Shown here piece after piece: positions 20,208 through 39,916 of a DNA stretch of 64,000 bases; the first letter of the stretch is position 1, and every line of letters begins with the position of its first letter. The DNA is from Candidatus Saccharicenans sp. Its GTDB lineage: Bacteria; Acidobacteriota; Aminicenantia; Aminicenantales; Saccharicenantaceae. The translations under genes were made by a program, and so were the position numbers. The DNA lies in the NCBI GenBank assembly GCA_049719515.1, contig JBNARJ010000003.1:151241-215240 (forward strand), read 5' to 3'. Under the pieces are notes generated by a model that was not told where the DNA came from, did no database searches, and saw only the letters and a list, made by a program, of their open reading frames with translations.

Positions 20208-22343
20208 ATGGACTTCAAACCTGGCCAATTAAAAAGACAATTTTTAGCGGTTTTAATATTGCTTGTTTCTTTTCTCACGACTTTTTCTCTGCTCGAGGCG
20301 CAGAATTTTCTTTCCGGCCTTGAAGAAAAACAAAACTACCGGAGCAAAAGAATTTCTTCTTACGACCCAACTGGCGGAAATCGCGATGCTCTGACCATTG
20401 CTCCGGGTCAGACGGCCCTGCTGGCCGAAATAAAAGGGCCGGCCGCCATCCACCATATGTGGATGACCGTCGCGGGAGAACCATTCTACGGCCGAAAGCT
20501 GGTTCTTCGGATTTACTGGGATGGGGAGGATTCTCCCTCGGTGGAAGCCCCTCTCGGTGATTTCTTTGGTGTGGGACACGGTCTTAACCGCAACCTGATT
20601 TCCCTGCCGATTGTACGTTCCTCAGAGGGCCGTGCTCTGAACTGTTACTGGTACATGCCTTTCCGCTGGTCAGCCAGGATAACCATAACCAATGAGGGAA
20701 CCCGGCCGGTGGGTTCTTTTTATTATCATATCGACTACCGCGAGCTTGATGATTTACCGCCCGATGCTCTTTATTTTCACGCCCAGTACCGCCAGGAAAT
20801 GCCCTGCGAGCCAGGCCGCAACTACCTGATTCTCGAGGCCGTCGGCCGCGGACATTATGCGGGCTGTAACCTGAGTGTCCTTCAGCAGTCCATCGGCTGG
20901 TGGGGCGAGGGAGATGATATGATTTTCATTGATGGTGAAGAGACTCCTTCCCTGCACGGTACCGGCAGTGAAGACTATTTTTCTGATGCCTGGGGCATGA
21001 GGGAAGGACAGTACCTTTACTACGGCTGTCCGCTTCAGGAAGAAGACTTTCAGATGGGCGCCAAGGCGACCGTTTTCCGTTTTCATCTGCCCGACCCGAT
21101 TACTTTTTTTAAATCAATCCGGGTAACCATTGAACACGGACACGCCAACGACCGTTCGGACTATTACAGCTCGGTGGCTTACTGGTACCAGACCGAACCG
21201 CACAAACCATTTCCACCCCTGCCGGCGGTGGACAGACGTCTGCCCTATGCCCTTGAAACACCTGACAATTTCGTCCAGCCGGGCTGGATAAAGGTTGAAA
21301 ACGAACAGGGCGAAGAAATTGTTTTCCTGGACCGGGTTAATAACGTAAAACTTTCAGGCCAACAGTTGAGCTATTTGCTCACTCCTTTTTATGACCAGAA
21401 TGGACAGAGGTATCCGGTGATCAACACGGAAAACGCTTCCCCGGGCACCAGACTGAAGCTGAAAGTTAAGGCCGGCTGGCGGGATGTCTACGACCTGCAA
21501 ATCTACTACCTTAAAGGCCCGGCGGCCGGCAACTGGTCTGTCTTCCAGGAAAAACCGGCTCCGGCCGAAGCCAGAGGGGAAGGCCAAAACTCAGAAACCG
21601 AACAGAAGCAGGCCGATGGCCAGGGACAGGTTCAGGAGAAACCTTCTGACGTTAAGCCTGCCCCTGAACTTATCAACCTCGGCCTTATAAACGGCTTTGC
21701 CCCGGAAATGATGATTGATTCGGTAAAAATCAAGAGCCTTGAACTCTCAACTGAAGAAACTGAACTTATCCTGGAAGCAACCGGAAAAGATTCCCGGTCT
21801 TCCGGCTTTAACCTCGGCCTGGTGGCCGTCAGCCCTGTGCCGGGCCAGCAAAATTATGCTCTTGACTGGTATGTGATCGGTCCGTTTGAAGCCCCAGACA
21901 TGAGTTATCTATCAGTGCCATATCCGCCTGAACAGGAACTGGCCCTCAACAAGAGCTATCCGGGTAAAAACGGTCAGCAGGTCACCTGGAAGCAAGTCAA
22001 AGCCAGTTCATCGGGCTATGTGCCCCTCAACCAACTTCTCCAACCTAATGAAAAGGCAGTAGCTTATGGATTAACCTATCTTTATTCTCCAGAAGAACGA
22101 GAGGCTTTGCTTCTTTTGGGAAGCGACGACGGGGTAAAGCTGTGGGTAAACGACGCCCTGGTTCATACCAACCCGGCTTACCGCGGTGCCTATCCTGACC
22201 AGGATAAAGTAAAGGTTCACCTGCAGGCTGGCTGGAATAAAATTCTGGTCAAGGTTTTGCAGGGTGCCGGCGGCTGGGGATACTACCTCAGGATTCCAGA
22301 CCCGGGGAAAGAATATCGGTGGAGCATTAAGCCAACCAAATAA
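20208..22343 (+). CDS. Glycoside hydrolase family 172 (DUF2961) protein with a C-terminal beta-sandwich extension
   Basis: Signal peptide, a DUF2961 core (RISSYDPTGGNRD...HHMWM...), a Q/E-rich linker, then about 250 aa of lectin/PA14-like sequence (GSDDGVKLWVNDALV). Confidence 0.8.
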   Translation: MDFKPGQLKRQFLAVLILLVSFLTTFSLLEAQNFLSGLEEKQNYRSKRISSYDPTGGNRDALTIAPGQTALLAEIKGPAAIHHMWMTVAGEPFYGRKLVLRIYWDGEDSPSVEAPLGDFFGVGHGLNRNLISLPIVRSSEGRALNCYWYMPFRWSARITITNEGTRPVGSFYYHIDYRELDDLPPDALYFHAQYRQEMPCEPGRNYLILEAVGRGHYAGCNLSVLQQSIGWWGEGDDMIFIDGEETPSLHGTGSEDYFSDAWGMREGQYLYYGCPLQEEDFQMGAKATVFRFHLPDPITFFKSIRVTIEHGHANDRSDYYSSVAYWYQTEPHKPFPPLPAVDRRLPYALETPDNFVQPGWIKVENEQGEEIVFLDRVNNVKLSGQQLSYLLTPFYDQNGQRYPVINTENASPGTRLKLKVKAGWRDVYDLQIYYLKGPAAGNWSVFQEKPAPAEARGEGQNSETEQKQADGQGQVQEKPSDVKPAPELINLGLINGFAPEMMIDSVKIKSLELSTEETELILEATGKDSRSSGFNLGLVAVSPVPGQQNYALDWYVIGPFEAPDMSYLSVPYPPEQELALNKSYPGKNGQQVTWKQVKASSSGYVPLNQLLQPNEKAVAYGLTYLYSPEEREALLLLGSDDGVKLWVNDALVHTNPAYRGAYPDQDKVKVHLQAGWNKILVKVLQGAGGWGYYLRIPDPGKEYRWSIKPTK

Positions 22344-22349
22344 ATAATT

Positions 22350-23759
22350 TTATTTTAAAACTTCATCAGCTTTGGCCTTGATTATTTCAAGCGCCTGGCG
22401 CACATGCCGTTCTTCAGTTGTGCGCTGCCCAACAACCAGCCGCAAAGTATATTTTCCGTTTAAAGTGGTATGCGTCAGGAATACCCGGCCAGTACTGTTT
22501 ATGGCTTCGAGCAACCTCTGGTTAAGCGCATTAAGTTCTTCTTCCGGCCGTCCGTCATTGAGCCGGAAGCAGACCAGGCTGAAATAAACGGGGGCCAGGA
22601 TTTCAAACCTCCGGTCCTGTTTGAGTTCATCACGGAAAAGCTCGGCTAAATGTATGTGCCTGCGGATAATTTTCTTGATCCCTTCCACGCCGTAATCGCG
22701 GATGACAAACCAAAGCTTGAGGGCGCGGAAGCGGCGGCCGAGCTGAATCCCCCAGTCTCGAAAGTTCTTCACCACGGCATCCACTCCGGTCTTCAGGTAC
22801 TCGGGATGGATTTCAAAAGTCCTGGTTAATTGCCGCGCATCCCGGACAAAAAAGGCTGAACAATCAAAATTGGTCAACATCCATTTGTGCGGGTTAAAAA
22901 CCAGAGAATCGGCATATTCCACACCTTCCAGAACCCAGCGCTTTTCAGGCAGAATGGCCGCTGTGCCGGCATAGGCCGCATCCACATGCAACCATACCCC
23001 GTATTTGCGGCAAATTTCACCGATGGGCTTCAAAGGGTCCACCGCACCGGAGGAGGTGGTGCCGACGGTGGCCACCACACAGGCCGGCCGATAACCGGCT
23101 CTTAAATCTGCCTCTATGGCCTTTTCCAGCTCCCCGGGTATCATGGCAAATTCATCATCCACCGGGATGTAGACCAGGTTTTTCTTTCCGAAACCGGCAA
23201 TTTTCGCCCCCTTTTCCACGCTTGAATGGGCCTCGCGGGAAGCATAAACCCGAAGAACTCCGGAAAATCCTTGCTCGTTGACCGTTTGTCCGGTGGCTTT
23301 CTCCCTGGCGGCCAGAAGCGCGCAGAGAGTTGCGGTGGAAGCGGTGTCCTGGATAACGCCTGCATAGCCATCCGGCAGCCCGATCATCTGGCGCAGCCAA
23401 TCCATGACCACTTCTTCCAGCTCAGTGGCTGAAGGAGAAGTCTGCCAGACCATGCCCTGGATGCCCAACCCGGCCGAAAGCAGCTCTCCAAGTATCGAAG
23501 CCGGGCTGTTATTGGAGGGGAAATAGGCAAACCAGCCGGGGTGCTGCCAGTGGGTCAGGCCGGGCACGATGATTTTTTCAAAATCTTCCATTATCCGGTC
23601 GAGGCCCTCCGGGTGAAGAGGTGGAGAAGCAGGAAGCTGTGATTTTATTTCGCCGGGCTTAACGGTTGATTTTACCGGGTAATTTTCCACTTTTTCCAAA
23701 TAATCTGCTATCCAATCAATCAACTGGTAGCCATATTTTCGAAATTCTTCCTTTTTCAT
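22350..23759 (-). CDS. Pyridoxal-dependent (group II) amino-acid decarboxylase
   Basis: Aromatic-L-amino-acid/tyrosine decarboxylase family with the NPHKWMLTNFDCSAFFVRD PLP-lysine region. GGAGG RBS. Confidence 0.88.
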   Translation of the reverse strand: MKKEEFRKYGYQLIDWIADYLEKVENYPVKSTVKPGEIKSQLPASPPLHPEGLDRIMEDFEKIIVPGLTHWQHPGWFAYFPSNNSPASILGELLSAGLGIQGMVWQTSPSATELEEVVMDWLRQMIGLPDGYAGVIQDTASTATLCALLAAREKATGQTVNEQGFSGVLRVYASREAHSSVEKGAKIAGFGKKNLVYIPVDDEFAMIPGELEKAIEADLRAGYRPACVVATVGTTSSGAVDPLKPIGEICRKYGVWLHVDAAYAGTAAILPEKRWVLEGVEYADSLVFNPHKWMLTNFDCSAFFVRDARQLTRTFEIHPEYLKTGVDAVVKNFRDWGIQLGRRFRALKLWFVIRDYGVEGIKKIIRRHIHLAELFRDELKQDRRFEILAPVYFSLVCFRLNDGRPEEELNALNQRLLEAINSTGRVFLTHTTLNGKYTLRLVVGQRTTEERHVRQALEIIKAKADEVLK

Positions 23760-23968
23760 GGTTCATTCCTCCAATTTTCAGGGCCGATTTATAAGATTTT
23801 AAGCCCTTTTATGGCCATTTTGAGCTCCAACGTAAGAATTCTAACACCAGAGGCTGCTATTTTTAAAGCATTTTTGCTCAAAATTGAACCATAAGCTGCT
23901 TTTTAGTGAGTCATTTATTCACCCTGGGTTGATTTTTTCCGTAATATTCAAAAAAAAGATGATTTTCC

Positions 23969-23997
23969 TTGACTTCATAAAATTAATATGGTATAAT
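23969..23997 (+). promoter_or_regulatory. Near-consensus sigma70 promoter (TTGACT-17-TATAAT)
   Basis: -35 TTGACT at 23969-23974, an exact 17 nt spacer, and -10 TATAAT at 23992-23997. No plus-strand CDS lies downstream. Confidence 0.55.
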
Positions 23998-24004
23998 TAT
24001 AAAT

Positions 24005-24239
24005 GTAGTTGGCGAGAGGGAAAAATAAATTTAATCAAGAATTCGGTTGCTTGTATTTTGGTATTTTCTTAAAATTCCTGAAAATTTTCTCAAAACAGAA
24101 ACCAATTTCTTTTTAGGCAGTTAATAATATTGGAAAAGAAAAAAGGTTTCTGGCATGTTTAAACTAAAAGGCCTCCTTCCTTAATCCTCCTTTCTTTGCC
24201 CTTCACCTCAGGCCCTGCTTTCCCCGGCAGGGCTTTTTT
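24005..24239 (+). ncRNA. Candidate small non-coding RNA (promoter-to-terminator unit, about 235 nt)
   Basis: It is bounded by the consensus promoter and the intrinsic terminator. The largest ORF inside is 9 codons. The 3' half is a pyrimidine-rich tract carrying two CCUCC motifs (aggCCUCCuuccuuaauCCUCCuuucuuugccc). Confidence 0.4.
24211..24239 (+). terminator. Rho-independent terminator
   Basis: GGCCCUGC-uuucccc-GGCAGGGC (8 bp GC-rich stem) followed by UUUUUU. Confidence 0.65.
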
Positions 24240-24484
24240 CGGCTGATCGGGATTATTCGTGGATACCTATGGAATTTATTTCTACGGACGTGGAAAGCCG
24301 AGCTTAAATATTAGATGGCCTGCTCCATCAGTTGTAATCCATAGATTTTTATCAAATTAACCGGTTATCCAATCATCGCCAGCCTCAGTTTACCAGGGCA
24401 TATCTATCTGTAGAAAATGTTATTTTCTAAAACCTCTTTGTAGTCTTTTTGATTTTCTGGCTGGCAAAAAATTACAAACCCTTT

Positions 24485-25828
24485 TCAGGCAGAAGTCTTT
24501 TCAATTTTTTCTTTTCTGTAATAGTAGACGTAAATTGATTCCATAAGCGCGCCGGCGGTTACCAGCCCGAGAAGGAAAACGGGCAAATTCAGCGCCAGAA
24601 GCCCGAACACTAAGGTAGCAAAGAAATCACGGCGCAGGGCAAAAGCCAGTTTGGCCGCCAGGCGGTCGGCCAGAGAAACGTCTTTTTTGCTCTGCCCCTG
24701 AGCTTCCACCTGCTTGGCCACCAAATATATTTTGTTCCCGATTCCGGCCTTTTTGGTCAGGTGGTAAAGGTTAAAATAATACCAGCTGACCGAACCTAAA
24801 AAGAGGCCAAGCATCCATAAAAAAATTGAGTTTCCTGTGTTCCGGTATAAGCCAATGGCCAGAGCGCTGAAAAATAAAATATAAGTCAGGGCGTCAAAAA
24901 TTACATCAAGCAGCCCGCCCTTTTCTGAAGTCTGGTAAGTCAGCCTGGCCACTTCACCATCGCAGCCGTCGAAAATGCTGGAAAACTCAAAAAGAAACCC
25001 GCCGGCTAAAAAATGCCAGTAATTCTTACCGGAAGCGCAAAAAGCGGCGGCGGATATGCCAATCAGAAAATTAATCAGGGAAAGCAGGCTTGGTTTTACC
25101 CGAAGCGGAGCCAGGAAACGCGTGAAAAATAAAGACACCCGACGGTTAAAATGGCGGGCGATAAAACCATCCTGCGGTTTTCTGGCGCTGGCCAGTAACA
25201 TTTTTATGGCTTTTTTCCTGGCCTCGGGTGAGTTAATCTTTATTAACCAGCCAGATAGCAGCCTGACAATTTCGGCCGAGCGGTGTTCGATGAGCCAGGC
25301 CGTCAGCTTTTCTTCATCTGGCTGACCGTGGCCATTTTCCCAGGCTTCCGTTAAAACTGGCCAGACATCTGACGGGCAAAAGGCCAGGTCCAAACCGGAT
25401 GGCCTCTGGTTGGCTGGTTGTGTTTCATCTGCGGTAAAAATCAGCGGCCGGTTTGTATCTGATTTTGTCTCTTTAATAAAGTCAAAGACCTTTTCCGAAA
25501 GAACCAGGTCACCGGAAAGCAGCCAGAACCCTCGTTCAGAGATTATCGGGTTGAGGGGGCTGATATTTTCATCATTCTTGCCACAAGCTGGCGTAAGATA
25601 TGTCAGCTTAATCCCACGCGCTTCAATTCTTTTTTCACTCGCCACTGACTGAACAAGCTCTTCTTCTCGGGTATCACCCTGCGCGAGCAGGATAATATTT
25701 TTTAAACCGGCCTGAGCAGCCACCAGCACGAGTCTCATGATAACCGACAAACCGAGTATTTCAACGCGGGAATGGTCTTTTAAAATGATAACAGCCGTGC
25801 TACTCAATGGCTTCACTTCTCCTTTCAT
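24485..25828 (-). CDS. CDP-alcohol phosphatidyltransferase family protein with an N-terminal nucleotidyltransferase-like domain (IPCT/DIPPS-like architecture)
   Basis: The C-terminal membrane domain matches the CDP-OH-P-transferase signature D-G-x2-A-R-x8-G-x3-D-x3-D exactly (DGCDGEVARLTYQTSEKGGLLDVIFD). An N-terminal soluble domain of about 230 aa resembles a MobA/NTP-transferase fold but lacks a canonical Gly-rich loop. Confidence 0.8.
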   Translation of the reverse strand: MKGEVKPLSSTAVIILKDHSRVEILGLSVIMRLVLVAAQAGLKNIILLAQGDTREEELVQSVASEKRIEARGIKLTYLTPACGKNDENISPLNPIISERGFWLLSGDLVLSEKVFDFIKETKSDTNRPLIFTADETQPANQRPSGLDLAFCPSDVWPVLTEAWENGHGQPDEEKLTAWLIEHRSAEIVRLLSGWLIKINSPEARKKAIKMLLASARKPQDGFIARHFNRRVSLFFTRFLAPLRVKPSLLSLINFLIGISAAAFCASGKNYWHFLAGGFLFEFSSIFDGCDGEVARLTYQTSEKGGLLDVIFDALTYILFFSALAIGLYRNTGNSIFLWMLGLFLGSVSWYYFNLYHLTKKAGIGNKIYLVAKQVEAQGQSKKDVSLADRLAAKLAFALRRDFFATLVFGLLALNLPVFLLGLVTAGALMESIYVYYYRKEKIEKTSA

Positions 25829-26823
25829 CGTTCAGATTTTATTTTCACCCTGCCTATCAAAACAATCAATAAAGTCAGGGCGGCAAAACAAAGCTTTCGA
25901 GCCCGGCGCACCAGACCAATGCTCAGCCCGGCGGCCGCCGGATAGCCAACCGTCATGGCGGCCAGCAGATTGGCACCCTCGGCTGCCCCCCACTGGCCGG
26001 GAATGATAAAAAAGGCGGTGTTGATAACCACCACAAAGGCTGAAATAAAAAGCACCTTGATCAAATCTACAGGAAGACCAAGAGCTTTAATGATAACCAG
26101 AACTTCCAGCGCCCCCAGAAGCCGGGCCATCACGTGCAGGGTCAAAGCCAGGATAAGTTTGGCCGGAGAATGTTTGAACAGAAGGCGCATGTTAGCATCA
26201 AGAGCTTTTATCATATCCTCTTTTTCCAAAAACCATTTTTCCAGCCTCGGTGATAAATGGCTTAATTTGGCAAAAACTTTGTGTGTTCCACGGAATTGCA
26301 GGGCAAAAAGAGCCACCACCCCGACAATGGTAACCGAAAGAACCACCAGAGAAGAAATTTTCATTCCTTCCGGGATTTTAAGATAGATTAAAGAAATCAA
26401 AAGACTGCCCGCCAGGTAGATAAAAGAAGCAGCGTATTCAATGGTCTTGTCAAATACCACTCCAGGAATACCTTCATGCAGAGGAGAATGCTTTTTGATG
26501 ATGACCGCCCGGGCGGCCTCCCCGCCAAAATTGGCTGTCGGGAGCAGGGTGTTAAAGCCATCCGCCAGAATCTTGGCCCTAAATAAGGCCAGCAGCGGCA
26601 CTCTCTGAAAAGCCCCCTGAATGATTGACCAGGCCAATGCCTGAAGAAAAAGCCAGCCGAAGGCAATCAGACAGCAGACAGCAAACCACCAGCCCACCCG
26701 AGAAAGGTTGCCCAGGGTCTCCTGAAGGCCAACCCTGTAAATCAGCAGGGCAAAAAGCAGCAGGCCAAGAAAAATGGATATTAATTGAAGCCTATTCTTC
26801 TTATGTCTATCCATTCTGTTCAT
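25825..26823 (-). CDS. Flippase-like UPF0104 membrane protein (lysyl-PG-synthase TM-domain family)
   Basis: 332 aa with 8 predicted TM helices. Its stop overlaps the downstream start by 4 nt. Confidence 0.75.
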   Translation of the reverse strand: MNRMDRHKKNRLQLISIFLGLLLFALLIYRVGLQETLGNLSRVGWWFAVCCLIAFGWLFLQALAWSIIQGAFQRVPLLALFRAKILADGFNTLLPTANFGGEAARAVIIKKHSPLHEGIPGVVFDKTIEYAASFIYLAGSLLISLIYLKIPEGMKISSLVVLSVTIVGVVALFALQFRGTHKVFAKLSHLSPRLEKWFLEKEDMIKALDANMRLLFKHSPAKLILALTLHVMARLLGALEVLVIIKALGLPVDLIKVLFISAFVVVINTAFFIIPGQWGAAEGANLLAAMTVGYPAAAGLSIGLVRRARKLCFAALTLLIVLIGRVKIKSER

Positions 26824-27128
26824 CCACTGCGGCTTATTTGAATATTATCTCCAACCGGCTTACTTTTTTTTACTCTATCTTTAATACCTTTAGCTTTCAA
26901 GCAGGCACAGTTCAGAAACCTATTAATAAAAAGCAATCATTAACAACCGTAACTTTTTTCAGCATTCTACCAGATGTCCTCCAGCCTCGAAAATAAAGCC
27001 TGATCTCTTTTTTCCTCAACTCCCGGGCCGTATCTTCTGCCGCGAAAAGCGCCCGTATGTTCCAGGCATTAAAATTATCTCTGCCTGCCTTTTCATCTTC
27101 CGGCCCGAAAAATCCTTTTTCCCTCAGC

Positions 27129-28811
27129 TTAAATATTTAATTTAAGCCCGAGGTAGAAACGCTTTTCATGCTGGGTGTCTTCAAAGTCATGAATTATGCC
27201 CCACCTTTTAACCCATTCTAACCTGGATTCAACAGCTAAGCCTGTCCCTTTAATCCTATACTGCACCCCCAGCCCGTAATGCCATCTTGAATCCCTTAAA
27301 GGGGAATCGTCAAGCAGGTCATTTTGAAAACGGTCACGCCCCTGAATAGAATAATAATAAAAATAATTCAAAAACGCCTGAAAACGGAGCGGGTCATATG
27401 CCAGCTCGACCAGGCTTTTTAAAGCTGGTCCGAAAGCGTAATAATAGCCATAATACTGGAGCGTTGTCTTCATCCCCCGGATGTCATGGTCAACCGAATA
27501 TTTATTCAGCGGAAGAGAATTTATCAGGCCGAAGCTCAGATAACCTTCACCCCGAAAATGGAACTGCCACGGCCGGGCAAAATAAGCATAATCAAAAACA
27601 GGTCCCAGGATATGGGCAGCTCCCAATTTATCCCGAAAATCGCGCGGCAGCTCAAAATGGAAATCCTCCGTCTGGTCTATTGAAACTTTTCCGGCGTCAT
27701 AATCCGTAACCGGCCTTTTTATGTAAACTTCAAGCGAAGACCCCAGCCCAACAAAATAGCTGTACCCCCGGTGCTCATCGGAAATGTCTTGGGCAAACCA
27801 GCCGAAAGGTACTATCTTGGCCAGCAGATTAAACTCCTCTCTTTCCCGCCCGTGATACATCATCTCCAAATCAAGCTGGCTGAAGACAGGCCGGTTAAAT
27901 TTTTCTCTTATTTTTCCCGGAATTCCATATTCCTCCCTGGTGATAATCCTGGAATTAAAACTTACATCCAGATTACCAACCCCCTGGCTGCTGCTTGAGG
28001 TGGGCGAATGCCGATAGCCCAGGAAGAAAAACACATCCTGAACCTTCGGGTTGTAAGCATGAAAGTAAGGCGGCACAGCTCGTTTTCGGTCAAACCAGCC
28101 GTTAATCTTCATAAAAGGATTAAACCAGGAAAGCAACCGGACATAGCGATTGGGTGAATTAGTTAAATATTGCCCCAGCTGAAACCAGGCTTCCCCGATG
28201 GGAATGCCTCCCAGGCCGGTCATGATATTGTCATTGGTGGAAATAACCTCCCGCCACTCGACAAAAAATTCCCAGCCCAGAGAACCGCCGATTGAATAAA
28301 GAGCTGACTGCCACCAGTCGAGGTTGTTACTCCTGGCAAATTCGTAATAAATCATTCCGGCTAACGAATGCCGCCAGTTGAGCCCAAAGTCATTCGAGTC
28401 AAACCGCTGTGCTTCAAAGGTAAAAAACCGCCTCTTCTGGTCATGCCAGGTAAACTGATATTGCCAGTCCTCAATGAATTTGCTGTATTTTATGTTGTAA
28501 TTTATTCCCGAGTAAGCAAAAAGGCCAAAAAACTCTAAAAAAGCTCTCCATCTGTGCTGCGGTGGCTGGCTTATCTTTTGGAACTTTGCCGGGTCCGTGA
28601 TAAACGGACCGTCAGCAAAGGGAGAGCCGAGGGAAAAATTCAGGCCGGTCAAGGCCCTGCCAACTGGTTGTTGCTTGAGTGCCGACAGGCGGAGAGAAAA
28701 ATTGGCGATAAAAGAATCAATTTCAGCCGGCTTTTCCTTTTTCTGGTCGGCATACACATTCAAGGCGAGGAATAGCGCCAGCAAGGTGATTAAAATAAGC
28801 GTTTTTCTCAT
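27129..28811 (-). CDS. Secreted or outer-membrane Trp/Tyr-rich protein of unknown function
   Basis: Signal peptide (MRKTLILITLLALFLALNVYA) and a high aromatic content with alternating patterns that suggest a beta-rich fold. ATG 28811 is preferred over TTG 28829. Confidence 0.6.
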   Translation of the reverse strand: MRKTLILITLLALFLALNVYADQKKEKPAEIDSFIANFSLRLSALKQQPVGRALTGLNFSLGSPFADGPFITDPAKFQKISQPPQHRWRAFLEFFGLFAYSGINYNIKYSKFIEDWQYQFTWHDQKRRFFTFEAQRFDSNDFGLNWRHSLAGMIYYEFARSNNLDWWQSALYSIGGSLGWEFFVEWREVISTNDNIMTGLGGIPIGEAWFQLGQYLTNSPNRYVRLLSWFNPFMKINGWFDRKRAVPPYFHAYNPKVQDVFFFLGYRHSPTSSSSQGVGNLDVSFNSRIITREEYGIPGKIREKFNRPVFSQLDLEMMYHGREREEFNLLAKIVPFGWFAQDISDEHRGYSYFVGLGSSLEVYIKRPVTDYDAGKVSIDQTEDFHFELPRDFRDKLGAAHILGPVFDYAYFARPWQFHFRGEGYLSFGLINSLPLNKYSVDHDIRGMKTTLQYYGYYYAFGPALKSLVELAYDPLRFQAFLNYFYYYSIQGRDRFQNDLLDDSPLRDSRWHYGLGVQYRIKGTGLAVESRLEWVKRWGIIHDFEDTQHEKRFYLGLKLNI

Positions 28812-29111
28812 TTTCGTGCTTTTTATCAATAAAATTATACAACTTTATGCTTTTATTTTTATGTTTTTATCGTAATTTCCCCATAATTAGTCTGTAAATA
28901 TTAATACTCATTTCGCCCTCTGTCAAAGGGACGGGTCAATTTTGTTTTTGAAAGATCACCGGCTGGCCTCCTGAAAAATTCCGGGTTACGCCCCAGGGAA
29001 AATACAGACGGGAGAAACCGGGCTTCTTCCTCATTTATCTTTTATCTTTTTAACTTAACATTTTTGTTTATTAACTTTTTAATTCGGTTGACTCGGAGAA
29101 AAGATATGATA

Positions 29112-29354: not shown

Positions 29355-31304
29355 ATGGTAAAAAGCCTTTCTGCCCGTTTCTGCCTTTTCCTCATTTTAT
29401 TGTTTTCTTATTCCATCCTGTTCGGTGCAGTGGAGGATGACCAGTTCAAGGAAGAAAAAATCCATCACGAAATCGTGGTAACAGCCACCAGGCTGGAAAC
29501 GCCAGTCAAAGAAACTGCTTCCAGCGTATCCGTTTTAAACATCGACCCGCTTACCCGGCTTAAATGCACCAGGCCGGAAACCGTTTTCTCCCAGGTCCCG
29601 GGTGTTTTTTACGCCCAGGCCGGGCCGGCTGGTGGAGCCGGTTCTCTTCTGCTTCGCGGCGGAAATTCCGAGCATACTCTGTTCATGATTGACGGGGTGG
29701 AGGTCAACGACCCGATTGCTCCCGCCCGGTCTTTTAATTTCAACTTGTTTAACCTGGCCCTGGTGGAACGGCTGGAAGTCCTCCGCGGGCCGCAGAGCAC
29801 GCTATACGGTTCTGATGCCCTGGCCGGGGTGGTAAATTTAGTCAGTTCGGAACCAGCTTCCAACCATTCGGAGCTCTTAATCTCCGCCGGAACGTTAAAA
29901 ACCTGGCAGGGCACCTTTTACCTGGCCCGGAGGGTAAAAAATCTCGCCTGTGAACTTGAATTAAATTCTTACGCCACCTCCGGTGTTTCTGCCGCCAGCA
30001 GATATTACGAGGGCAATAAAGAGCCCGATGGATTCTCTCAGCAAAGCTTCGCCTTCAAGGCCAGATACCAGGCCAGCCCTGACTTTTCTTTTAGCTGGCA
30101 GGTTCGGGGACTGCTCTCTGAGGCCGACCTTGATGCCTTTGGCGGGCCATATGGTGATGACCCAAACTTCAAGCAGAAAACTTCATTTGCCTTCCAGCGG
30201 GCTGAGTTCAACTTCTTTCTTTTCGGACATCGCTGGGAACAAAAGTTGATTTTCGGACTGGAAACCAGCCGGAGGAAAAATCAAAACGACCCGGATGAAA
30301 GCCATCTCGGGGAAAGCGAAAGAGCGGCTTATCACGGTAATTTCTTCAAGCTCGACTGGCAGAATAACCTTTTTCTCTCCAGAACACAGGCGGTAATTTT
30401 CGGGCTGGAGCTAAAAGAAGAATCCGCTCATTCAGAAGACTTCTATACCGGCCCTTTCGGTTCTTACGAAAGCCTCTTCCCTAAGAAAAAAGCCGGGCTG
30501 CTGGGCTTTTACCTGCAAGACCAGTGGAAGCCAGCCTCTGGCCTGTCACTGACTTCCGGACTGCGCCTTGACCGGCATCGGGAATTTGGAATGGCTCTGA
30601 CTTACCGGCTGGCCGCCCTTTATTCCTGGCCGAACCAAAGATGGAGAATAAAAGCCACGGCGGGCTCGGGTTTTAAAGCTCCATCCCTCTACCAGCTATA
30701 CGCTCCTGACAGTGCCTTCGGCCCTATCGGCAATAAAAATCTCAGACCAGAAAAAAATTTCGGTTGGGACATCGGGTTTGAGCACGATTTGGGCCACGAC
30801 CTGTCATTCAGCCTGACTTATTTTGAAAACCGATACCGTAACCTCATTCAATTTTATTTCGGTAGTGGCTATGAAAACCTCGGCCGGGCTCTAACCCGCG
30901 GGTTAGAAGCTTCCCTGAGCTTCAGACCATTCCAGGCTCTCTCGGCCGAGGGGGGCTGGACCTGGCTCAGGGCGCTCGACCTGGACCATGACGAACAACT
31001 GGTCCGGCGCCCGGCCCACAGTGGTTTCCTAAACTTCGCCTGGGTAGAAAAGAAATTTCGCCTGGGCTTGGAAATCAATTATGTCGGCGCAAGGATTGAC
31101 CTCAACTACTCAACCTATCCGGTTGCCCGGGTTAAACTTCCGGCCTGTTTTTTAACCAGCATCGACCTCCGCTACGACCTCAACCGGAAGTTTGAGGTTC
31201 TGTTTGTGATAAACAACCTGTTCAACGTCAGGTATGAACTTGTTTATGGCTACGGTCAGCCAGGCACTACAATTTCCACCGGTTTTAGATTAAAATTGTC
31301 ATAG
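29355..31304 (+). CDS. btuB: TonB-dependent outer-membrane receptor, BtuB-like
   Basis: Signal peptide, plug-domain TonB-box region (IVVTATRLETP), and a C-terminal beta-barrel ending in an aromatic residue. It is controlled by the cobalamin riboswitch. Confidence 0.8.
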   Translation: MVKSLSARFCLFLILLFSYSILFGAVEDDQFKEEKIHHEIVVTATRLETPVKETASSVSVLNIDPLTRLKCTRPETVFSQVPGVFYAQAGPAGGAGSLLLRGGNSEHTLFMIDGVEVNDPIAPARSFNFNLFNLALVERLEVLRGPQSTLYGSDALAGVVNLVSSEPASNHSELLISAGTLKTWQGTFYLARRVKNLACELELNSYATSGVSAASRYYEGNKEPDGFSQQSFAFKARYQASPDFSFSWQVRGLLSEADLDAFGGPYGDDPNFKQKTSFAFQRAEFNFFLFGHRWEQKLIFGLETSRRKNQNDPDESHLGESERAAYHGNFFKLDWQNNLFLSRTQAVIFGLELKEESAHSEDFYTGPFGSYESLFPKKKAGLLGFYLQDQWKPASGLSLTSGLRLDRHREFGMALTYRLAALYSWPNQRWRIKATAGSGFKAPSLYQLYAPDSAFGPIGNKNLRPEKNFGWDIGFEHDLGHDLSFSLTYFENRYRNLIQFYFGSGYENLGRALTRGLEASLSFRPFQALSAEGGWTWLRALDLDHDEQLVRRPAHSGFLNFAWVEKKFRLGLEINYVGARIDLNYSTYPVARVKLPACFLTSIDLRYDLNRKFEVLFVINNLFNVRYELVYGYGQPGTTISTGFRLKLS

Positions 31305-39541: not shown

Positions 39542-39916
39542 TTATTTCTCTAAAATTACGATGGCCACAGCATATGTTTTAAGATGAGACAGCGAAACAT
39601 GAGCCCGGCTCAATCCCTTGCTTTCGAAAATCTCCTTCGCCCGCCCGAATAACTCAAGCACCGGTTGACCTGTTTCCAGGTTGCGAATTTCAACCTCAGA
39701 AAATTTAACCCCTCCGCTCCAGCCGGTACCCAGAGCTTTCATAAAAGCTTCCTTGGCCGCAAACCGGGCAGCATAATGCAGAGCCGGAGAATGCTTGCTC
39801 TCACAATAAGCTATCTCCAGGCTGGTAAAAAGTTTCTCTTTCAGGCCAGGCGTTCTTTTCAGCTTTTCTTCGACCCGGTCCACTTCAATAAGGTCTACGC
39901 CAATCCCCGAAATCAA
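39542..39916 (-). CDS. acpS: Holo-[acyl-carrier-protein] synthase (4'-phosphopantetheinyl transferase)
   Basis: (M)ISGIGVDLIEVDRV...AAKEAFMKALGTG. TTG start with an AGGAGG RBS 5 nt upstream. Confidence 0.85.
   Translation of the reverse strand: MISGIGVDLIEVDRVEEKLKRTPGLKEKLFTSLEIAYCESKHSPALHYAARFAAKEAFMKALGTGWSGGVKFSEVEIRNLETGQPVLELFGRAKEIFESKGLSRAHVSLSHLKTYAVAIVILEK

Follow-up and report, generated by a model that had tools for sequence, protein, structure and literature searches.

A candidate anti-Shine-Dalgarno small RNA with a short reading frame, encoded beside a decarboxylase gene in Aminicenantes

Does a gap between two genes of Candidatus Saccharicenans (Aminicenantes) encode an RNA of its own and, if it does, how might that RNA act? 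The window that we analysed is a 64-kb stretch (64,000 nucleotides) of contig JBNARJ010000003.1, assembly GCA_049719515.1, and all positions given here count from its first letter. In it, 725 bp separate two minus-strand open reading frames (ORFs), 22350-23759 and 24485-25828, just as an initial annotation made from the letters had it. That annotation proposed that the gap holds, at 23969-24239 on the plus strand, an ORF-less transcription unit for a trans-acting small RNA (sRNA). We tentatively favour the view, although our doubts slightly outweigh our confidence, that 23969-24239 (+) is a genuine, independently transcribed sRNA gene, and that its product is a dual-function riboregulator of the anti-Shine-Dalgarno type.

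The unit begins with a sigma70-type promoter (TTGACT, a 17-nt spacer and TATAAT; 23969-23997 on the plus strand) that agrees with the consensus at 11 of 12 positions and has the TG of an extended -10 element at 23989-23990. The initial annotation had called the -35 hexamer perfect, which it is not, TTGACT agreeing with the consensus at five of six positions; the spacer and the -10 element are as described. Across both strands of the 64-kb window, a consensus scan finds two sites with at least 11 of 12 matches, and 23969-23997 alone has the TG extension; by Markov-chain resampling of the window, an 11/12 site with TG is expected 0.03 times. Promoter-like sites in the region overall occur at about the frequency expected by chance (5 against 3.2). 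The sole 12/12 sigma70 consensus of the window, TTGACA-16-TATAAT at 40017-39989 on the minus strand, lies upstream of a holo-ACP-synthase-like ORF (39542-39916) and looks like an ordinary strong mRNA promoter.

From the position of the sigma70 promoter, transcription is predicted to start at about 24004. Some 205 nt 3' of this point begins a hairpin, AGGCCCUGCU-UUCCCC-GGCAGGGCUU, which gives a predicted transcript of ~236 nt. The GC stem and U6 tract that had been placed ~235 nt downstream of the promoter are thus indeed present, at 24210-24239, and the stem reaches 10 pairs around a core of GCCCUGC/GCAGGGC (24212-24218/24227-24233), with a folding energy of -17.2 kcal/mol (z = -3.1). The reverse strand gives a weaker fold (-14.1 kcal/mol) and has no T tract. 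The hairpin is absent from the list produced by a consensus terminator scanner. Between promoter and hairpin, no ORF with an ATG start exceeds the nine codons first reported, but two ORFs with TTG starts do, both on the plus strand of the spacer: 24009-24116 (35 aa) and 24047-24124 (25 aa). We consider these very unlikely to be genes, the spacer being unconserved in the nearest relatives.

The proposal of a stand-alone plus-strand transcription unit gains support from related loci, in which the promoter, the 5' end, the C/U-rich 3' part and the hairpin keep their order and position. We gathered these loci, which carry our own labels (L001 and so on), through the decarboxylase encoded by 22350-23759, and compared the DNA upstream of the decarboxylase gene in the orientation of the window; figures for promoters, ORFs and composition refer to 55 unique copies unless stated otherwise. 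Of the decarboxylase loci, 71 extend far enough upstream to be judged, and about 30 of these carry the unit; the best genome loci belong to Saccharicenans or Aminicenantes, and in decarboxylase loci labelled as other phyla the unit was not found. A scan of a metagenome collection with an element-only DNA pattern, CCTCCTTTTN{14,15}ATRRATN{17,18}YATCCCC, returned 78 loci, 73 of them with the extracytoplasmic function (ECF)-type promoter described below, all Aminicenantes-like. By nhmmer profile, each locus, and the window itself, holds a single copy.

Close relatives, whose decarboxylases are 84-93% identical (L001, L002, L003, L034, L004 and L159-L175), carry the same unit. They have in common the promoter cTTGnn-17-TGGTATAAT, the 5' end GUUGUyGGsAAGGGGAAA, a spacer that cannot be aligned, and a 3' part that reads CCUCCUUyUyyUAA-yCCCUCCUUUCyUUGCCCUUCACCC, then GCCCUGC-loop-GCAGGGC, then U's. 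Distant Aminicenantes, with decarboxylases that are 63-70% identical and genomes that range from AT-rich to GC-rich, retain the order of the parts: a sigma70 promoter, a 5' G-run box, a spacer, an ECF-type promoter, a Shine-Dalgarno sequence with an ATG-started ORF, a C/U-rich, G-poor stretch, and the hairpin. The extended -10 sigma70 promoter, cTTGnn-17-TGnTATAAT, is found in 50 of 53 related units, and throughout the family a 5' box, A(A)AGGGGAA, lies 12-25 nt past the predicted start. This box is Shine-Dalgarno-like and has no start codon after it. Shine-Dalgarno-like boxes of this kind, 5' and without a start codon, are known as STAB-SD stabilisers, and by analogy the 5' box could be a STAB-SD-like stabiliser of the 5' end.

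The unit has been lost in a few Aminicenantes lineages (L005, L012 and L176/L177). In L176 (560-905) and L177, which belong to the Saccharicenans clade and have a decarboxylase that is 83% identical, ~308 nt without an RNA unit lie between the TonB-receptor and decarboxylase genes, and this loss could serve as a natural comparative 'knock-out'. Of the unit, L005, a GC-rich member of the Aminicenantes, still has the sigma70 promoter with the 5' G-run box, whereas the later parts (ECF promoter, short ORF, CU-rich tract, hairpin) are missing; transcripts begun at its sigma70 promoter would enter the promoter region of a cobalamin riboswitch directly.

RNAalifold, applied to 18 sequences of the long family, predicts the terminal hairpin only, and 10 of its 13 pairs show compensatory changes, so that the test of conservation and compensatory change proposed at the outset came out in favour of the unit. 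In the Saccharicenans clade the stem is invariant and the loop variable. Wobble pairs outnumber C-A mismatches, 13 to 5 in the long family and 10 to 0 in the Saccharicenans clade, which indicates that the plus strand is the RNA. We also considered a minus-strand reading, in which GGAGG would serve as the ribosome-binding site (RBS) of small ORFs or the region would be a long decarboxylase leader. No conserved minus-strand ORF was found, and we reject this reading because both promoters, the ORF, the wobble pairs and the U tract all lie on the plus strand.

An internal promoter-like site, at 24098-24122 in the window, was overlooked in the initial annotation. In the family it consists of GCAAC (53 of 55 copies) and a -10 box that is CGTA in 41 copies and CGTA or CGTT in 46 of 55, with a spacer of exactly 17 nt in 52 of 55; the other -10 variants are CGTT, AGTT, TGTT and GGTT, in the Saccharicenans clade. 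Each position of the two boxes carries ~2 bits of information and the spacer positions almost none, a signature of a promoter and not of RNA structure. ECF sigma factors recognise a consensus of the form AAC...CGT/GTT. The family has these features, a -35 AAC, a -10 CGT or GTT and a fixed spacer of 16-17 nt with variable sequence, and the motif architecture of the site fits an ECF-sigma-type promoter. In the window the spacer is 16 nt long, as it is in the nearest relatives, L159 and L161. We found no GCAAC-N17-CGTA[TA] elsewhere in the window. A wider regulon for this promoter was sought and rejected: across 1.58 Mb of loci, just two sites fall outside an element, which is about the chance number. 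In L085, the 5' G-run box and the ECF-type -35 box are only ~20 nt apart, which shows that the spacer is dispensable.

At the level of the family, the unit is not free of ORFs, as the initial annotation had described it. Our criterion was an ORF with an ATG start that extends at least 5 nt into the first CCUCC motif and has its stop within the unit, and the expectation was obtained by shuffling the purine-rich upstream part only. Such an ORF occurs in all 28 genome-derived copies (7.2 expected) and in 54 of 55 unique copies (17 expected), where it covers the first CCUCC; a Shine-Dalgarno-like TGGAG or TGAG lies 4-9 nt 5' of the ATG in 36 of the 54. This sequence belongs to a (T/A)nTGGAG/TGAG block that lies where the short transcript is predicted to begin and doubles as the Shine-Dalgarno-like sequence of the short ORF. 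Frame-shifting indels are compensated, both between L048 and L043 and between L159 or the window and the other Saccharicenans copies, and the position of the stop is conserved as TAA or TGA, with an invariant TAA column in the Saccharicenans clade. Taken together, the maintenance of the ORF, the frame-restoring indels and the conserved stop indicate that the ORF is under selection to exist.

The nine codons in the window are a truncated homologue of this ORF. L159 (MSKEIVASGIFKTKPLLS, then stop) and L161 (MLKEDRSSGMFLLIFLPY, then stop) have ORFs of 18 codons, in the same frame and with the same stop as the remnant in the window. Compared with L159, L001 and L161, the window has suffered a 17-nt deletion that took out the ancestral start (..AAGAUGAGCAAAGAAAUUGUU..). 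What is left is an internal ATG, also present in L161, that opens nine codons in an unchanged frame up to the same stop and has no good Shine-Dalgarno sequence.

What selection preserves within the ORF appears to be the RNA. Codon-position entropies of 0.57, 0.55 and 0.47 across 31 unique long-family sequences show no excess of change at third positions. Leu-Leu is encoded by CUC CUU without exception, although the search pattern did not include these codons, and variable codons differ at positions 1 and 2. Depending on the clade, CCUCCUU is read as Leu-Leu, Pro-Pro or Ser-Phe, that is, in three frames. Since CCUCC is fixed at synonymous sites and read in three frames, the RNA sequence is conserved and not the peptide. 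The encoded peptides are 9-43 aa long, and none has a Pfam match. To judge from these alignments, the CU-rich motifs read as constrained at the RNA level, with additional selection for the region to be translated. The family has the conserved short ORF of a dual-function RNA, with translation predicted, and shows no visible purifying selection on the peptide.

Between the first CCUCC and the hairpin, the RNA is 35.5% C and 7.6% G. Both CCUCC motifs that had been pointed out are present, at 24172-24176 and 24186-24190, and the tract contains a third C-rich box as well (AUCCAUCCCC in the family, UUGCCCUUCACC in Saccharicenans). RNAalifold leaves the region unpaired, and the partition function gives an unpaired probability of ~0.6 in both isoforms. 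Masking of the seeds by the 5' box is predicted to be weak (0.20 against 0.12). By eye, the 5' G-run box seemed able to close a helix with the CU-rich tract near the 3' end, but cognate and non-cognate duplexes have equal energies (-17.6 and -17.3 kcal/mol in one comparison; -14.8 and -15.0 kcal/mol, p = 0.65, in another), covariation lends no support, and we keep this helix as an idea at most. A global fold like that of 6S RNA or of a riboswitch is unsupported, because folding is no better than that of shuffled sequences. A direct-repeat operator acting at the DNA level through the two CCTCCTTTT repeats is less likely, as the repeats lie within the maintained ORF, between the promoter and a hairpin with strand-specific wobbles. 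In silico, the unit combines a promoter and a terminator of its own with a conserved, unpaired, C-rich seed complementary to GGAGG, which are the marks of an anti-Shine-Dalgarno sRNA. The features in the window are listed in Table 1.

Table 1. Coordinates of the features of the RNA unit and of the divergent decarboxylase gene in the window
Feature	Position	Strand	Basis
UP-element-like A-tract, 5' of the -35 hexamer	23950..23958	+	Sequence; A-rich tracts at the equivalent position in relatives
Sigma70-type promoter: -35 TTGACT 23969-23974, 17-nt spacer, extended -10 TGgTATAAT 23989-23997	23969..23997	+	Consensus scan and conservation
Conserved 5' end of the predicted long transcript, GUAGUUGGCGAGAGGGAAAAA, with G-run '5' box' at 24011-24025	24005..24025	+	Kept in L001, L159, L161, L002-L004
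AT-rich spacer, unconserved in sequence and length (20-350 nt in relatives)	24026..24097	+	Comparison with relatives
Internal ECF-sigma-type promoter-like site: GAAAC 24098-24102, 16-nt spacer, -10-like AGTT 24119-24122	24098..24122	+	Degenerate copy of family GCAAC-N17-CGTA
ATTGGA, homologue of the family (T/A)nTGGAG/TGAG block	24129..24134	+	Comparison; start codon downstream deleted here
Remnant short ORF, ATG..TAA, MFKLKGLLP then stop (9 codons)	24155..24184	+	Frame and stop in common with L159, L161
CCUCC motif 1, within the short ORF	24172..24176	+	Sequence; family CUCCUU invariant even at synonymous sites
CCUCC motif 2 (CCUCCUUUCU), directly 3' of the stop codon	24186..24190	+	Sequence
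Conserved C-rich tract UUGCCCUUCACC, at the position of family AUCCAUCCCC	24196..24207	+	Comparison
Predicted intrinsic terminator: 10-pair hairpin 24210-24219/24226-24235, U6 tract 24234-24239	24210..24239	+	Folding, conservation
Pyridoxal phosphate (PLP)-dependent, aromatic-L-amino-acid-decarboxylase-like gene, divergent	22350..23759	-	Pfam PF00282 (group II decarboxylase), 6e-118

The family is previously undescribed, and its general kind, the sRNA or dual-function RNA with anti-Shine-Dalgarno seeds, is known. At the gathering threshold, an Rfam 15 scan of the window returns only a cobalamin riboswitch (29108). When 23700-24550 is searched with E-values up to 10, the best E-value is 0.13 or worse and every score falls well short of gathering (suhB/mmgR scores 15.4 against a gathering threshold of 41), and seven representatives of the family give cobalamin matches only; the covariance-model scan suggested by the initial annotation has thus yielded no family for the interval. 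In the literature, we found no work on small RNAs of Aminicenantes.

According to the mechanism that we propose, the sigma70 promoter would drive a transcript of ~236 nt that ends at the intrinsic terminator, and the ECF-type promoter of the family, degenerate in the window copy, would give rise to a stress-inducible isoform of ~110-170 nt. The functional core would be the unstructured, C/U-rich and G-poor stretch just 5' of the stable 3' hairpin, with its two CCUCC motifs and the further C-rich tract. The CCUCC tracts would imitate the anti-Shine-Dalgarno sequence of 16S rRNA, whose 3' tail has a CCUCC core (PMC6288834), and would pair with the GGAGG-type RBSs of mRNAs and block the initiation of translation. 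In the family, the short ORF would be translated through the first motif, so that passing ribosomes and pairing mRNAs would contend for these nucleotides and the RNA would be a dual-function or translation-gated one. The window copy, deprived of the ORF start by the 17-nt deletion, probably works mainly as an RNA. The layout of a trans-acting, RBS-occluding sRNA, as first suggested, holds in so far as the CCUCC stretch is predicted to be single-stranded; no target emerged, and occlusion is something that we infer from motif and layout. What the computations show is the set of parts with their conservation and strand, the upkeep of the ORF and the decarboxylase linkage; transcription, the use of two promoters, translation, pairing and targets are inferences.

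The nearest precedent for such an RNA is found in CcsR1-4 and NfeR1 (Rfam alpha-r14; DUF1127 gene ccaF1) of Rhodobacter and Sinorhizobium. These 'cuckoo' RNAs combine CCUCCUCCC anti-Shine-Dalgarno seeds with an adjacent small-protein gene and with alternative-sigma as well as sigma70 promoters, and they silence their targets through RBS occlusion (PMC8034643, PMC10746234). The family described here resembles them in its repeated, unpaired anti-Shine-Dalgarno seeds (CCUCC here, CCUCCUCCC there), in having a small ORF within one unit, in its two promoter types and in its Rho-independent terminator. It differs in that there is no match in sequence or in Rfam, the phylum is another one, DUF1127 is missing, the partner gene encodes a decarboxylase, and there is one copy in place of tandem siblings.

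Other known systems are similar in single respects. RoxS and RsaE of Firmicutes are stand-alone sRNAs in which unpaired C-rich regions target G-rich Shine-Dalgarno sequences and which end in a 3' terminator hairpin. The C-rich unpaired seed region and the 3' hairpin are common to both, but Rfam gives no match, the seed is CCUCC here as opposed to CCCC or UCCC in loops, and only here does an ORF run over the seed and do two promoters occur. In dual-function sRNAs with an ORF that overlaps the pairing region (AzuCR/AzuC and Spot 42/SpfP; also SgrS/SgrT and RNAIII/hld), one transcript provides both a peptide and a regulatory seed, and translation competes with pairing; there both functions rest on experiment, whereas both are predicted here and the peptide is apparently unconstrained. 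MicA, RybB and MicL are sRNAs transcribed from ECF (sigmaE) promoters of the AAC-N16/17-CGT type. Unlike the present family, they are Hfq-dependent, enterobacterial, directed at outer-membrane-protein and lpp targets, and without an ORF; the ECF motif proposed here is deduced from architecture and is degenerate in the window. The leader-peptide attenuators pheL, mgtL/mgtP and tnaC likewise place a short ORF with many Phe, Pro and Leu codons closely 5' of a stable hairpin, and the segment GFNID of the long-family peptide resembles the WFNID of TnaC. They differ from the present unit in that here no same-strand downstream gene is obligatory, no antiterminator structure was found, and the linked gene is divergent.

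Several observations weigh against an anti-Shine-Dalgarno riboregulator. The start region of the decarboxylase gene shows no cognate preference as a target (-22.6 against -22.7 kcal/mol, p = 0.6) and ranks 16th of the 50 start regions in the window for pairing, and with no cognate signal and such a rank, we rejected the decarboxylase mRNA as a specific target. Any CCUCC tract will pair generically with any strong Shine-Dalgarno sequence, so that complementarity alone proves little. A general anti-Shine-Dalgarno mechanism also leaves the tight linkage to the decarboxylase gene unexplained, and the near-universal maintenance of the ORF means that the peptide, or the act of translation, could be the real function. 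The seeds lie in a linear, unstructured tract, the first of them inside the ORF, unlike those of the cuckoo RNAs, which are presented in hairpin loops downstream of the ORF. The fold of the whole transcript is no more stable than that of shuffled sequences (z = -0.59 and -0.68), and the short isoform does no better. The U tract is missing from most hairpins of the family, although the window and most Saccharicenans copies have it. Finally, the GAAAC-16-AGTT of the window departs from the ECF-type consensus and is a weak match.

How do other explanations fare against the same evidence? That a promoter-like and a terminator-like sequence should have come together by chance in AT-rich intergenic DNA, with no functional unit, has hardly any credibility. 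Promoter-like sites do arise in the region at about chance frequency, but an 11/12 site with TG does not, and the layout is kept where decarboxylases are only 63-70% identical, with a hairpin that co-varies; to judge from the sequences, chance co-occurrence is excluded. A more substantial, though still unlikely, alternative is a small-protein gene, that is, an mRNA for a peptide of 15-35 aa whose N-terminus is basic and whose C-terminus, in the long family, is rich in Leu, Phe and Pro (..LLFxPPFFxGFxI[DN]PLxx, then stop). Under this explanation, the window copy would be a decaying pseudogene, to which the deletion of its start would correspond. The excess of ORFs over expectation, the properly spaced Shine-Dalgarno-like sequence, the frame-restoring indels, the constant position of the TAA or TGA stop and a peptide motif that recurs in ~50 long-family copies all speak for it. 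The pattern of substitution does not, given that third positions show no excess, conserved codons are frozen at synonymous sites and variable codons change at positions 1 and 2. The same nucleotides are moreover used in three frames, the peptides are alike across clades only where the CU-rich DNA dictates it, the conservation of nucleotides runs beyond the stop to the hairpin, and no Pfam family matches. The window has also retained the promoter, the CU-rich tract and the terminator despite the loss of the ORF start.

It is improbable that the unit is a cis-acting leader or attenuator, in which ribosomes that translate the short ORF across a rut-like tract, or as far as the hairpin, would determine read-through into cobalamin-riboswitch/TonB-receptor or transporter genes, the leader in the window having been orphaned by the insertion of three genes. 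A cobalamin riboswitch does lie on the same strand 100-530 nt 3' of the unit in 27 of 50 loci, and many other loci have transporter-like ORFs on that strand; the stop is 12-15 nt from the hairpin, a near-constant distance in the long family, and most family hairpins are without the U tract. The C-rich, G-poor composition is like that of Rho loading sites, and, with its Pro-Pro and Phe codons, the ORF is reminiscent of the mgtL, mgtP and pheL leaders. However, 23 of the 50 copies are without a riboswitch gene, a promoter-like site stands between hairpin and riboswitch in 19 of the 27 that have one, and in the window, L159, L013, L023 and L058 the unit is kept although the genes 3' of it are convergent. 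With a riboswitch downstream in only 27 of 50 loci and with promoter-like sites intervening, the unit is independent of the downstream gene. In the window, a convergent gene (24485-25828, minus strand) comes next and 5 kb separate the unit from the first gene on the plus strand, Saccharicenans copies finish in a canonical U-tract terminator, and RNAalifold finds no alternative antiterminator pairing; by eye, the local hairpins CUCC:GGAG and GGGA:UCCC are out of register between clades. Linkage to the divergent decarboxylase gene (60 of 62 loci) is far tighter than to any downstream gene. We regard as quite improbable a ribosome-gated trans-regulator, in which ribosome transit or stalling on the Pro-Pro, Phe and Leu-rich ORF would set the availability of the seeds, and the RNA would signal the state of translation or of amino acids in trans, to the decarboxylase or to translation in general, with two isoforms that differ in activity. 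Stalling could then hinge on the supply of aromatic amino acids or proline, on EF-P activity or on a TnaC-like, ligand-dependent arrest, and the sigma70 and ECF promoters would give isoforms with and without the 5' box, respectively. More doubtful still is a decoy or sponge. Here the CCUCCUUUCU tracts would stand in for the 3' tail of 16S rRNA and draw off a protein or RNA whose usual partner is that tail; examples would be a pyrimidine-tract binder, a nuclease or toxin, or a factor for initiation or ribosome maturation. The 5' box might assist in bringing in 30S subunits. CCUCCUUUCU matches the usual 16S 3' tail, two or three C-rich tracts are repeated, the very strong promoter with its UP-like A-tract suggests high abundance, and the 5' box resembles STAB-SD. 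This argument is one of analogy, the data do not separate a decoy from ordinary base-pairing, and the maintained ORF and the decarboxylase linkage are left unexplained by it.

The most constant neighbour of the RNA unit is the decarboxylase gene. Among the loci found through the element alone, 62 have 700 nt or more of DNA upstream, and in 60 of these the gene lies divergently upstream, with a median of 244 nt from its ATG to the -10 element; in the exceptions, L085 (2700-3000) and L088, another divergent gene is next to the unit. No NCBIfam equivalog reaches its cut-off for 22350-23759. A protein identical to its product is found in a Candidatus Saccharicenans metagenome-assembled genome, and close relatives are annotated as aromatic-L-amino-acid decarboxylase. 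The decarboxylase mRNA has a hairpin in its 5' untranslated region (~23795-23825, minus strand) with an A-rich loop and equivalents in L159-L173. Its stem varies among Saccharicenans yet stays paired (GGGC/GCCC, CGGGC/GCCCG, GGAGG/CCUCC, CAGG/CCUG), and the hairpin may be a cis-regulatory element or a docking site for the sRNA.

On the other side of the unit, no plus-strand protein gene follows for ~5 kb, as the initial annotation had observed. The next plus-strand feature is the cobalamin riboswitch (RF00174, 29108-29278, 107.8 bits), which precedes a TonB-dependent receptor gene at 29355-31304 (+), and three minus-strand genes (24485-28829) are inserted between the RNA unit and this riboswitch/TonB pair. 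A GH172/DUF2961 gene (20208-22343, plus strand) is convergent with the decarboxylase gene and has a class IV aminotransferase gene on its far side; the synteny of these two genes extends across the Saccharicenans clade. The conserved block consists of the TonB receptor, the RNA unit, the decarboxylase, GH172 and the aminotransferase. The window contains no tRNA or transfer-messenger RNA gene.

Aminicenantes (candidate phylum OP8), an uncultured lineage that is widespread in anoxic sediments, aquifers and digesters, gain an RNA family of more than 100 copies. The family is a candidate for inclusion in Rfam and in catalogues of small ORFs, and it flags a gene that has been missed in annotations of Aminicenantes. 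If the anti-Shine-Dalgarno mechanism is true, the family would represent an independent invention, outside Proteobacteria, of the design that joins a cuckoo RNA to a small ORF, and with a seed placed inside the translated frame, it would bear on the competition between translation and riboregulation in dual-function RNAs.

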